Assembly (NCBI RefSeq): GCF_003334815.1
Contig: NZ_QOWO01000051.1
Length of the DNA: 22,672 nt
Reading direction: 5' to 3' (one strand)
DNA from: Escherichia coli
GTDB taxonomy: Bacteria > Pseudomonadota > Gammaproteobacteria > Enterobacterales > Enterobacteriaceae
The position numbers are program-made. Shown here piece by piece: positions 3,001 to 6,000 of this stretch (the stretch's first letter is position 1; each line of letters opens with the position of its first letter).

Positions 3001-6000
3001 TATTGAGATTTTAAAATTGATTTGTGGCTATGTACTCATAAATAATACTTTCGGTGTCAGAAAATACTTTATCTATTACATTTAAAATCCTAGGTGAAAG
3101 ATATATAATGGCTACCTCACCCCCTAAAAAACTCTTTCCGATGCCACTCTACAACCCCTCAAAAGGGTAATTTTTACGCACCTGTGGCAACGCAATAATT
3201 TTTCCGTCAAAATCCCAGAATGACCTCTCAATGATCTCTCCGCCGTTTACCGCATCCAATACCAGTACCCGCATATTTTCATCCAGGCCAATCGTTCCTT
3301 TATCAAAGGCTTTATGATGTATCGCGCAAAGCGCCAGGCCATTGGGAATTTCACAAGGGCCACCATGTTGTTTCCATTTTATATGTGTCGCTTCCAGTGA
3401 GACGGTGGAGTTGCCGTAACAAATATTAAAGCTACATATTGCGCACTGGTAGTTATAAGCGCGTAATACATGTTTGCGAAATAATGGGTCACGCTGCTTA
3501 CGGATTTGCTGGAGAGCAAAAAAAGGCTCGTCAGCGATTTACTGGAAGCCATTGATATCCCTGGCAGTGAAATAATTGCGATCATGCTCGCAAATTTTCT
3601 GCTGTTCAAGCCTGCAAGCGAAGATATATTACCTTGATCTCATATGTTTTTTTACTTCCTGTGTGCCCTAATTGCCATGCGATGTTGCACCGACGCAAAC
3701 CGCCGTTTACGCCGGAGGAGTTAAAAGCGCTGATGGATGCGAATAAATCAAATTAATGAACGCTCACCTTTCGCGCCAAAACCGCAAAATTGCTTTTACA
3801 AACCTGTCAGAAATAATTCCCCGACGGGCTGCCGCGCTGAAATGACTGCTTCGCAGTGCCGTCGTCCAGTTCTCCGGTGACCGGTACGCTGAACCGTAAT
3901 ATCCCGTGCTTAAATCGTCCGGATCTTCATCAGGCGCGTTCGTCAGTCCTCTTTCACCTTGTTGCTGGAAGTCGACGAAAATAATATTGGCTAAAACATT
4001 ATTTTGATAATTGCCATAAATCGCTTCATACGCATGAGGGAAATTTTCTTTCCAGTACCAGGTGGTATCGCCGCAAAACCACGGTGCGTCAGTAATATTA
4101 TCAAGCTGAGAATGGTATTGTTTTAGATCCCTACGAAAGGCTTCAACCATATGATTAAAGTGTTGAGGGTGTGACGCGTAGTCACTGGTCATTAAGTCAA
4201 ATTCGCCTTGCATCCAGCATACGCCGAGGAATTTGTTCTGCGGATTTTTTGCCAGTGCGACTCGCGTTCTGCTGACTAAATCCTGGTACAGCGGAGTATC
4301 CATTCCCCAACGACAAGCATCATGGCTGGCTCCGTGCCGTTCTGAATATGTCCCTTCGCTGCCCGCGGTAAAAGCCGATCCGCCACGGCAACACGGAACG
4401 ATGAGAACCCCTGCATTATCAGGAATAAAGGGCAGTAATTTCCGTGCTATATGCAGTGCCTGGCCAACGGTGCCGTACTGTGTTTGATGATTCGTTGCCA
4501 GAGGATGGTGATAACCTAGCATATCCTGAACATCGTGTGGGCAGTGAGTCAGTGGAATAATGTCGTTAAAGTGACATGACGGGCCTCCGGGATGCGTATG
4601 CGCAAATCTCGCTAATTGTTTAATTCTGGGATGAGGCGCATCTTCCCCGTCCGGTAATGGCAGTCCTTCGCCATACGCCATGGCATTAGACTGACCAGCA
4701 ACGGTAAGAACATAGTAATAATCGGGCGATATTATTGCGTTCATATAATTTTCGCGTAATACAAATGACAAATTGATAGCAGGGCCCCTTTACCGGGGCC
4801 CTGAAGCGTTAGTTTTGTACTGTGACTTTATTATCCTTCACAGAGATCAAAACTGAATCAGTCACCGCTTTGCCGCCTGCAGTTTCACCGCCAATAATTA
4901 ATAAACTATTATTCCAGGGCAATGATACTCCGTAGGCCCGACCTTGCGATAATTCGCCCGATTTATCCCATTTCCCGTTATGCCAAAGATGAATATCAGC
5001 GCTATATGATTTTTTCAGGCCTTCATGCGCATAGTTCTTACCGTTCTGGTAATTTTCTCGTGAACCTTTGAATCCGGCCCCTCCGGCAAATATAAGTGAG
5101 TCATTGCTCATGCCTGCAAAACCGCCAGCGACGCCATCTGGTGATGCGACGGGAGCAAGCTTATTCCATTTTAAATTATTACCGGTGAAATCAAGTTCAA
5201 ATACGGCATCCGTTCGCAATCCTGGTTTGGCTTCGCCATTAATAAGCCAGGTTTTATCACCTTTATTCACAACCGCCGCACCAGCCGTTCCGTACCAGGG
5301 AGATTCGCCAGCGTAACTCCATTGCTGTGTAGAGGGATCAAAAGACAACAGAAACTTATTGAAGAAATAATCTTCTGCTTTTTTGTCAAAATAGTGGGCG
5401 TTGATTTTATCTATAGTGGTTGAATCTTTTCCAGCTTCGTTGAGATCTTCAAAATAGCCATTGAAGATATTCTGGTTAACACCGCCAGTAACATAGGCCT
5501 TGCCGTTGTGTACAAAAGTCACATGGCCCGCCATGCCCATCGGCGCGTGCGACATCAATTTAACCCAGCTATTGGTTTTGGGGTTGTATTTGTGTACGTC
5601 ATTAAATACCTGAGTCAAGCCCTCGCTGTTTTTGCCAATGCCGCCAAACACATACAGATTGCCATCAATAAATGCAGAGGTTGCTTGATCTCTCGGTCCG
5701 CCAGGGAATGCAGCTAACGCTGTCCATCTTTTATCTTTGGCCTGTGTATCCAGCTTGTACCATGCCGTACCTGCGCTACCTAAACCAATGTAGACAGTGT
5801 CGTTATCAATTGCTCCGGTACCACTTTTAAATGGCACAGGAGTTTCCGGTAATACAGACGCGTTTGCGGCAAATGAAGCCATTATGATAGTAAGCGCCGT
5901 TATTGTTTTATTCATTGTGACTGTCTCCTGTCTACTACAGTTTAAATGACACACCAATGCGATAACTGTTTTCCGATAAATTATCTCTGCCGTTGTAAAC

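Follow-up and report, generated by a model that had tools for sequence, protein, structure and literature searches.

The 22,672-nt stretch of Escherichia coli DNA analysed here (contig NZ_QOWO01000051.1; the window) carries on its minus strand, at 3117-3552, what is very probably a non-functional pseudogene of an EcoWI-like restriction endonuclease, in which a sulfur-binding domain (SBD) is followed by an HNH nuclease domain. The nuclease half is well preserved and the SBD is gone; a 436-nt out-of-frame deletion and the loss of 1 nt from a G run leave no uninterrupted frame from a start codon. The anatomy of the remnant, its homology, its lesions and its distribution in the population are all direct observations. 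An earlier note, made from the sequence alone, had proposed the remnant of a restriction-type HNH nuclease gene that is missing from the ORF track. That central reading is supported: the gene is decayed, and no list of ORFs would include it. The remnant proves to be of a known family and already annotated as a pseudogene by PGAP.

Family and reading frame of the HNH half

The minus-strand fragment 3117-3538 matches NCBIfam NF045808, 'phosphorothioated DNA-binding restriction endonuclease', over 118 residues (E=3.5e-50; profile positions 155-272 of 284). Its score of 170.7 bits is just below the curated cut-off of 180 bits, which applies to the whole protein, and the intact syntenic allele scores 438.4 bits; therefore, the window copy is the remnant of a family member, not a member itself. 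The fragment also matches the full Pfam HNH_2 model (PF13391; independent E=2.4e-8, positions 1-66 of 66), and both matches, far stronger than chance would give, bear out the near-complete minus-strand HNH domain described in the earlier note. The Cys, His and Asn positions for which it had proposed an alignment to HNH_2 are all kept: C-x2-C, the T-H-I histidine, GGP, N and C-x2-H-H. We take the Zn ligands to be C(3445-3443), C(3436-3434), C(3328-3326) and H(3319-3317), and H(3385-3383), N(3343-3341) and H(3316-3314) are presumably catalytic.

Translation of the HNH frame from 3538 gives IADEPFFALQQIRKQRDPLFRKHVLRAYNYQCAICSF...LEATHIKWKQHGGPCEIPNGLALCAIHHKAFDKG...NYPFEGL, 129 sense codons (3538-3152) that end at a TAG (3151-3149), in agreement with the frame assigned earlier. 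The remnant goes on beyond this TAG: in the frame reached through the 1-nt shift, its final 12 ancestral codons (VVEWHRKEFFRG) and the ancestral TGA extend down to 3117. The span first proposed, 3149-3541, thus captured the HNH frame, but 3541 belongs to an upstream in-frame TAA (3541-3539) and the remnant extends to 3117. Similarly, the claim that no start codon is possible holds for ATG, GTG and TTG, the first of which in this frame is the ATG at 3274, but the frame opens with ATC (3538-3536), a rare table-11 initiator. An NCBI-derived cluster of 141-aa 'HNH endonuclease' proteins (P0001; 82 member sequences) is called from exactly that ATC. In strain LSN03-016011/A, which is 100% identical, PGAP annotates a pseudogene ('frameshifted; incomplete') that maps to window 3117-3538, the same boundaries as the remnant. 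The 76-aa ORF across this region, which had been regarded as an out-of-frame shadow, is indeed out of frame over the HNH domain, but what it carries across the junction is the frame of the native ATG, and its translation includes ...GISMASSKSLTSLFLL...

Features of the SBD-HNH remnant and its surroundings in the window
Feature	Position	Strand	Basis or remark
Terminal 77 nt of IS10/ISVsa5-type element (IS4 family)	1-77		Alignment break, repeat matches
Type III restriction endonuclease (Res helicase-nuclease), 3' two-thirds	78-2457	+	PADLOC REase_III
Pseudogene body: HNH_2 half of SBD-HNH phosphorothioate-dependent restriction endonuclease	3117-3538	-	Ancestral codons ~152-290 and stop
Ancestral TGA stop	3117-3119	-	HB37/LF82 homology stops a few bases beyond
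Premature TAG stop from G-run frameshift	3149-3151	-	Sequence, translation; end of the frame first described
G4 run, 1-nt frameshift	3155-3158	-	Alignment with 042, RIVM_C039227, C9 and STEC313; other deletion carriers have G5
HNH_2 nuclease core	3281-3445	-	Full PF13391 model; columns conserved between intact allele and TagI (PDB 6ghs)
76-aa ORF	3379-3609	-	Translation, frame arithmetic; in-frame TTG, 19 leader codons, native ATG and 7 codons, then out-of-frame HNH read
T7 homopolymer, immediately 3' of junction	3518-3524	-	Sequence; T TTT TTG in the ATG frame
436-nt deletion junction	3532-3536	-	Alignments to intact alleles; GCT (3535-3533) common to both breakpoints
Retained ancestral ATG (3552-3550) and first 7 codons, MASSKSL	3532-3552	-	Frame other than that of HNH
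Second HNH endonuclease remnant, C-terminal ~34 codons (LLPVCPNCHAMLHRR...)	3652-3756	+	PGAP pseudogene; tblastn

Intact genes, which the earlier note had expected in related strains, are found at the same position in HB37 and SM107. These genes (873 nt, 290 aa) lie between nanS, a small HNH fragment and a variable island, and the HNH fragment, ythB and nanS are flanks common to the window and the intact loci. Collinearity of the window DNA with both genes begins in the 5' region, takes in the ATG and runs through to the TGA; the HNH half of the window copy is 89% identical to theirs. This shows descent from an NF045808 member. Residues 5-142 of the intact allele match the SBD of ScoMcrA (PDB 5zmo; E=1.1e-6), and its C-terminus matches the HNH domain of TagI (PDB 6ghs). 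In the window copy the SBD is absent, codons ~8-151 having been deleted.

The closest known enzymes are EcoWI and the NF045808 family of E. coli SBD-HNH enzymes (PMC7461809, PMC9521924). In vivo, EcoWI restricts dnd+ plasmids; it cleaves GpsAAC/GpsTTC at N7/N6 (PMC7461809). The intact syntenic alleles resemble it in size (290 aa and 33.2 kDa, against a predicted mass of 33.4 kDa for EcoWI; PMC7461809), and the ancestral gene at the nanS locus likewise had an SBD followed by HNH; the window copy differs in having no SBD, a start that is out of frame and a second frameshift. The EcoWI papers and supplement give no accession or sequence that places EcoWI at the nanS locus. By family, the window gene is EcoWI-like, and membership suggests that its ancestor would have shared the phosphorothioate-dependent cleavage seen in characterised members (PMC7461809). 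The Streptomyces type IV enzymes ScoMcrA and SprMcrA (SBD-(SRA)-HNH; PDB 5zmo, 5zmn, 5zmm) also place a sensor domain before an HNH nuclease, and the H-K/R-P and P-F-W motifs are included in the aligned SBD; however, the intact allele is only distantly similar (E ~1e-6) and has no SRA domain, and the window SBD is deleted. TagI, an HNH_2 modification-dependent endonuclease, shares C-x2-C, the A-H-I histidine, GGP, Asn, Cys and H-x-F-D, but has another N-terminal sensor domain and recognises another modification.

Lesions and their distribution in E. coli

Mapping of the breakpoint by alignment to intact homologues, as the earlier note had proposed, located a 436-nt internal deletion relative to the HB37 and SM107 genes. 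The breakpoints lie within an imperfect repeat, AAATCGCT / AAATTGCT, with AAATyGCT microhomology. The sequence lost is internal, and the 5' end with the native start is still in place: intact proteins start MASSKSLQQ, and the intact allele of HB37 shows 100% identity over the 171 aligned bases up to the junction, ATG and upstream region included. Because 436 = 3x145+1, the deletion does not preserve the frame; with the SBD removed and the frame shifted, the retained ATG would give only a 57-aa nonsense peptide. At the site of the T7 tract intact alleles carry CTGGGTTTTGAT. A T8 tract, or a -1 slip at T7, would put the native ATG in the HNH frame; the frame-restoring T8 was present in none of the 371 junction-bearing genomes recovered with a 71-nt query from 5426 complete E. 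coli genomes.

A Shine-Dalgarno-like AGGGA is retained ahead of the native ATG. A promoter/terminator scan returned no promoter-like sequence ahead of this ATG on the minus strand, and its only hairpin was a weak one at 3576-3593; no Rfam families matched in 2400-4000. The remnant lies downstream of nanS and is co-directional with it, and is therefore probably transcribed.

In the second lesion, a G5 run that lies 12 codons ahead of the ancestral stop has become G4. A 40-mer spanning this frameshift occurs in only 8 of the 5426 complete genomes, all of which share the remaining window at 99.3% identity or more. The G-run loss is later than the 436-nt deletion, whose junction is found in 323/5426 genomes with a 40-mer and in 371/5426 with a 71-mer (~7%).

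The HNH allele of the window, at 95% identity or more, occurs in 371 genomes, the same number as carry the junction, and among these 371 no intact E. coli gene with this allele was found. LF82, the one match below 99% identity that was inspected, carries the deletion, and sampled matches at ~90% identity or less were all of the other allele. A homologue search for a full-length allele with the window's divergent HNH half returned none, only proteins of at most 244 aa; the nearest homologues of this half belong to other carriers of the deletion and to a mosaic fragment of metagenomic origin (P0002).

Decay at this locus takes other forms as well. At least 80% of the gene length is kept in only ~31% of the complete E. 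coli genomes. The K-12/BL21 type retains only gene nt 21-261, an SBD piece (NC_000913.3 ~4,536,268-4,536,501, unannotated in that record) from the half complementary to the window remnant; another class keeps only nt 1-144, and the O157:H7 copy is without the last ~28 nt. LF82 combines the 436-nt deletion with a 1-nt C deletion of its own, and L010 has a T-run frameshift; the further independent 1-nt indels are those of LF82 and GCA_052869635.1. PGAP gives the K-12/BL21, O157:H7 and LF82 forms the same product name. The K-12/BL21, O157:H7 and LF82 forms share with the window the nanS-adjacent position and the decaying parent gene; K-12/BL21 differs in that the SBD piece survives there and the HNH half in the window. 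One gene has thus reached at least 4-5 truncation forms across E. coli.

These observations suggest the following course. The intact 290-aa enzyme would recognise phosphorothioate (dnd-type) DNA through its N-terminal SBD and then cut nearby with its C-terminal HNH_2 domain, so that incoming phosphorothioate-modified DNA would be restricted. Deletion between the two repeat copies cost the whole SBD and shifted the frame, leaving the HNH half without a canonical start codon, and the remnant appears to have drifted neutrally from then on. In a small sub-lineage that includes the window, one G of the G5 run was later lost, and the last 12 codons were cut off with it.

Substitutions and alternative readings

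Between window-type and LF82-type deletion lineages we counted 8 nonsynonymous and 2 synonymous substitutions (dN/dS ~1.08; binomial p=1.0), a test of neutral drift based on 10 substitutions only. Conserved motif residues were altered in both: the window lineage has CYG in place of RHD, and LF82 has RDGP in place of HGGP. Comparison with the intact alleles gives 24 nonsynonymous and 23 synonymous substitutions (dN/dS 0.24), a departure from neutrality (p=3.6e-5); the contrast between the two comparisons is not significant (Fisher p=0.16). The post-deletion substitutions look neutral. From this pattern and the lesions we infer that the remnant is not expressed at present.

Several observations count against the pseudogene reading: the core HNH positions are intact, the 5' region is 100% conserved together with the ATG, the position downstream of nanS makes transcription probable, and one pipeline calls the ATC start. 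The remnant might still yield a free-standing HNH nuclease that lacks the SBD and could act as a non-specific nickase or toxin, initiated at the ATC or reached through a ribosomal or transcriptional -1 slip on T7 (3524-3518) that joins the ATG and HNH frames. Its Zn-binding and catalytic residues, its native ATG and upstream region, the T7 tract exactly at the frame junction and the ATC taken by an annotator would all suit such a protein, as would the non-specific nicking of SBD-truncated SprMcrA in vitro (PMC7461809). We nevertheless consider it very improbable: T8 is missing from all junction-bearing genomes, extra frameshifts have arisen in three sub-lineages (the window G run, the LF82 C deletion and the L010 T run), substitutions are neutral-like and reach conserved motif residues, the window copy is without its last 12 codons, the scan found no minus-strand promoter-like site upstream of the ATG, and selection should act against a nickase that is constitutive and non-specific.

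The deletion may instead have made a latent stand-alone HNH nickase, given that the native promoter, the AGGGA and the ATG are retained and T7 lies at the frame junction; a milder version holds that repeated loss reflects selection against phosphorothioate-dependent restriction. Both versions seem very unlikely to us. If the stronger one were true, an SBD-less nuclease comparable to SBD-truncated SprMcrA would arise when the tract slips by -1 or mutates to T8, or when initiation occurs, rarely, at the ATC; if the milder one were, repeated independent gene loss could, for example, let E. coli tolerate dnd/ssp-modified DNA.

That the lesions are sequencing or assembly artefacts, from homopolymer errors or a collapsed assembly, and that the real gene is intact is hardly credible. 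Homopolymers such as the G run of the second lesion do typically attract sequencing errors, and the length of a C-terminal T run varies in a related assembly; yet the identical 436-nt junction recurs in 323-371 independently sequenced complete genomes of different lineages, and the G4 allele in 8 complete genomes whose remaining window is at least 99.3% identical. Origin from another HNH family (an IscB-type RNA-guided nuclease, a homing endonuclease or McrA) has next to no probability. HNH domains are widespread, and there is a weak secondary match to NF040563 (guided_IscB), but its 24.6 bits are far under the cut-off of 175 bits and reflect HNH-core similarity only, against 170.7 bits over 118 residues for NF045808; we rejected the IscB-type origin. 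Moreover, intact SBD-HNH genes of this locus are collinear with the DNA, and the correspondence takes in its 5' region and both its start and its stop codon. A non-functional SBD-HNH pseudogene is thus our preferred reading.

Neighbouring remnants and significance

The earlier note's picture of a graveyard of defence nucleases largely holds: the region contains an IS-cut type III helicase and a second HNH fragment, and a near-full-length SBD-HNH gene is kept in only about a third of E. coli genomes. The 78-2457 ORF matches PADLOC REase_III with 1610 bits (profile positions 338-1128 of 1154), and the gene is broken at about codon 334 of 1126; LSN03-016011/A has an intact 1126-aa version downstream of a DNA methyltransferase gene. 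We rejected truncation by the window edge, as window 1-77 is the end of an IS: the best alignments of otherwise identical genomes all begin at window 78, and these 77 nt are 100% identical to sequence at thousands of places in E. coli genomes; at the one instance inspected they abut a transposase gene of the ISVsa5 family, which sits within a phage tail gene. The fragment at 3652-3756, which PGAP labels 'HNH endonuclease, missing N-terminus', had no significant Pfam, NCBIfam or PADLOC match; tblastn aligned it with the C-termini of full-length plasmid HNH endonucleases (212 aa in Klebsiella, 282 aa in Marinobacter). It is unrelated to the first remnant and divergent from it.

Alone, the HNH remnant matters little, being a recognisable pseudogene of a characterised restriction-enzyme family that RefSeq annotations already flag in hundreds of E. 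coli genomes. Its value is modest: it illustrates cleanly how a defence gene decays at the variable border by nanS and the fim genes, where different lineages have kept complementary halves of one gene, the HNH half in the window and the SBD piece in K-12. The comparison also brings out a remnant that the K-12 reference leaves unannotated, and the locus could inform how fast modification-dependent restriction is lost.

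Parent family of the HNH remnant

Minus-strand translation next to nanS gave an open frame of 129 codons with an in-frame stop directly 5' of it, and with its earliest ATG, GTG or TTG located 3' of the nuclease core. The frame covered the entire Pfam HNH_2 model (PF13391, E=2.4e-8) and matched positions 155-272 of 284 in the NCBIfam profile NF045808, 'phosphorothioated DNA-binding restriction endonuclease' (E=3.5e-50, 170.7 bits). These matches indicate that the HNH translation made in the earlier note was correct; judged by profile score, the similarity is not a matter of chance.

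In the E. coli strains HB37 and SM107 the same locus holds an intact gene of 873 nt and 290 aa (WP_000168586.1 and WP_021557484.1), which separates a variable island from a small HNH fragment, ythB and nanS. The intact protein scored 438 bits on NF045808; residues 5-142 align with ScoMcrA's sulfur-binding domain (SBD; PDB 5zmo, E=1.1e-6), and the TagI HNH domain (PDB 6ghs) is matched by residues 169-250. The parent family of the remnant is SBD-HNH. Among E. coli enzymes built this way, the characterised one is EcoWI, which cuts GpsAAC/GpsTTC at N7/N6 and acts in vivo to restrict dnd+ plasmids (PMC7461809). The papers give no EcoWI accession, and we liken the two by architecture and size (33.4 kDa predicted for EcoWI (PMC7461809), 33.2 kDa for the intact allele).

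Positions 2800-3800 are 100% identical to E. coli LSN03-016011/A, in which PGAP labels the equivalent of 3117-3538 (minus strand) a pseudogene, 'phosphorothioated DNA-binding restriction endonuclease; frameshifted; incomplete'. As a pseudogene the remnant is unremarkable: its family is characterised, and RefSeq annotation already has it.

Lesions, constraint and possible residual expression

Lesions were mapped by alignment to the intact gene. Up to the junction, HB37 is matched at 100% identity over 171 aligned bases, a stretch that takes in the 5' region, the native ATG and the opening codons of MASSKSL; a clean 436-nt gap follows. The ends of the gap sit in an imperfect repeat (AAATCGCT / AAATTGCT), which places the junction with GCT shared. 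The deletion removed codons ~8-151, the whole SBD, and is out of frame because 436 = 3x145+1; the native ATG would now encode MASSKSLTSLFLLSSKSV...HI*, 57 aa. The 76-aa ORF shares this ATG's frame and has 19 more codons 5' of it, beginning at a TTG. It is therefore the frame of the real start, read across the deletion, and not merely the out-of-frame shadow that the earlier note took it for. A second lesion, seen against other carriers of the deletion, shortens a G5 run by one base; the resulting TAG ends the remnant frame, so that the final 12 codons (VVEWHRKEFFRG) are lost. The overall interpretation as a decayed HNH nuclease gene is supported with corrections: the frame placed at 3149-3541 is the HNH frame, but the remnant reaches 3117; the gene is broken, but by an internal deletion that kept the start codon.

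Features of the locus, in window coordinates
Feature	Position	Strand	Basis or detail
End of IS10/ISVsa5-type element	1-77		terminal 77 nt
811-aa ORF	22-2457		ATG at 22
100-aa hypothetical protein	2504-2806	-	
AT-rich spacer	2807-3116		~310 nt
Ancestral stop, TGA	3119-3117	-	alignment to intact gene
Stop of remnant frame, TAG	3151-3149	-	sequence
Shortened G run	3158-3155		
Remnant open frame	3538-3152	-	IADEPFFALQQIRKQRDPLFRKHVLRAYNYQCAICSFNICYGNSTVSLEATHIKWKQHGGPCEIPNGLALCAIHHKAFDKGTIGLDENMRVLVLDAVNGGEIIERSFWDFDGKIIALPQVRKNYPFEGL
Earliest ATG of remnant frame	3274		
76-aa ORF	3379-3609		
T7 tract	3524-3518		
Deletion junction	3536-3532		
In-frame stop 5' of remnant frame, TAA	3541-3539	-	sequence
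Native ATG	3552-3550		
Inverted repeat	3576-3593		TTGCGAGCATGATCGCAA
Second HNH remnant	3652-3756	+	...LLPVCPNCHAMLHRR...; fragment LLPVCPNCHAMLHRRKPPFTPEELKALMDANKSN
nanS	3764-4744	-	

Divergence is mosaic between 3517-3700 and 3117-3516, with an HNH half that is ~11% divergent (dS 0.32) set against the HB37-identical bases up to the junction. Five substitutions, bunched in 11 nt just past the junction (CTGGGTTTTGA to CCTTTTTTTGC), generate the T7 run. This clustering and the mosaic suggest that the deletion site is a recombination breakpoint or carries a scar of repair. The remnant's HNH allele was not found in any intact gene.

Against intact alleles, the HNH half shows 24 nonsynonymous and 23 synonymous changes (dN/dS 0.24; strongly non-neutral, p=3.6e-5), which argues that the remnant's allele diverged while still functional. 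Between the window and LF82 types, both deletion-bearing, there are 8 nonsynonymous and 2 synonymous changes, a dN/dS of ~1.08 that is indistinguishable from neutral. When intact alleles are used to polarise the changes, R190C, H191Y, D192G and S244L fall on the window lineage, and M239L falls on LF82 together with two changes in the conserved HGGP motif, H208R and G209D. Each of these lineages has its own 1-nt indel, and a C-terminal T-run varies in a third assembly. The numbers are small (Fisher p=0.16 for the direct contrast of the two substitution sets), and the direction of the substitution pattern fits a dead gene.

Could the HNH half still be made? The T7 tract lies exactly at the junction, where the ATG frame reads C TTT TTT TG; slippage by -1, or one extra T (T8), would put the HNH frame in register with the native start. 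One annotation also takes ATC, the first codon of that frame, as the start of a 141-aa 'HNH endonuclease' (cluster P0001; locus L010, 1501), and SprMcrA truncated of its SBD is an active non-specific nickase (PMC7461809). However, a frame-restoring T8, as phase variation would produce, occurred in 0 of 371 junction-bearing genomes, and the deletion-bearing lineages have acquired extra frameshifts and neutral-like substitutions. We therefore consider an expressed remnant, by either route, very improbable.

About 25 nt 5' of the native ATG lies a perfect 6-bp inverted repeat, kept in intact alleles: a possible operator, or else a weak terminator downstream of nanS.

Nuclease genes left of nanS

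The first 77 nt are unmatched in otherwise identical genomes, all best matches beginning at 78, and are the end of an insertion sequence that interrupts a type III restriction (Res) gene at ~codon 334. It follows that the start of the 811-aa ORF lies within the element; of the 1154 positions in the type III restriction enzyme model, the ORF covers only 338-1128. In LSN03-016011/A the Res gene is intact (1126 aa) and follows a gene for a DNA methyltransferase; the insertion is shared by 0 of 5426 complete E. coli genomes. In this genome the helicase-nuclease gene is indeed broken, by IS insertion.

A second, unrelated HNH remnant, oriented divergently from the first and deleted in K-12, corresponds to the C-terminal ~34 aa of HNH endonucleases whose full length elsewhere runs from 212 aa (Klebsiella) to 282 aa (Marinobacter, adjoining an ATP-binding protein). 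With the cut Res gene and two HNH remnants, three broken restriction-type nuclease genes lie left of nanS, which bears out the 'graveyard' proposed from sequence alone.

Homology to HB37 and LF82 ends a few bases beyond the remnant's TGA; the 100-aa gene thus marks the variable-island edge. This gene, between Res and the remnant and followed by the AT-rich spacer, is kept with the island in LSN03, SM107, 042 and STEC313 and had no match in PADLOC. No Rfam family matched within 2400-4000.

The window's nanS is intact (96% identity to K-12 NanS over 326 aa). PGAP labels the region 'sialate O-acetylesterase, incomplete, missing C-terminus' in all related RefSeq genomes inspected (L001, L002, L003, L006-L009, L011); either those strains have real lesions or the label is a quirk of annotation.

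Distribution among E. coli genomes

Among the 5426 complete E. coli genomes, 4102 hold some piece of the 873-nt gene and 1707 keep at least 80% of its length. The deletion junction was found in 323 with a 40-mer query and in 371 with a 71-mer query tolerating the LF82 variant; carriers include 042, ST648, Sanji and LF82. Only eight have the G4 frameshift allele, and these are also the nearest relatives of the whole window. In two carriers the left flank is reshaped by IS1: in C9 (L008) valS is joined via IS1 straight to the remnant, and in RIVM_C039227 (L007) IS1A stands in place of the type III system.

K-12/BL21-type genomes retain no more than nt 21-261, an SBD piece. In K-12 MG1655 the piece (nt ~21-268, ~90% identity) lies between yjhR and ythB (NC_000913.3 ~4,536,268-4,536,501; L004 ~5269-5502), and is complementary to the HNH half kept in the window. 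The MG1655 RefSeq record has no feature on it, whereas PGAP labels the piece in K-12 derivatives and BL21-type strains. Another class of genomes keeps only nt 1-144, and the O157:H7 allele is without its last ~28 nt. Taken with the deletion carriers, these varied truncations show that the locus is decaying along several independent routes.
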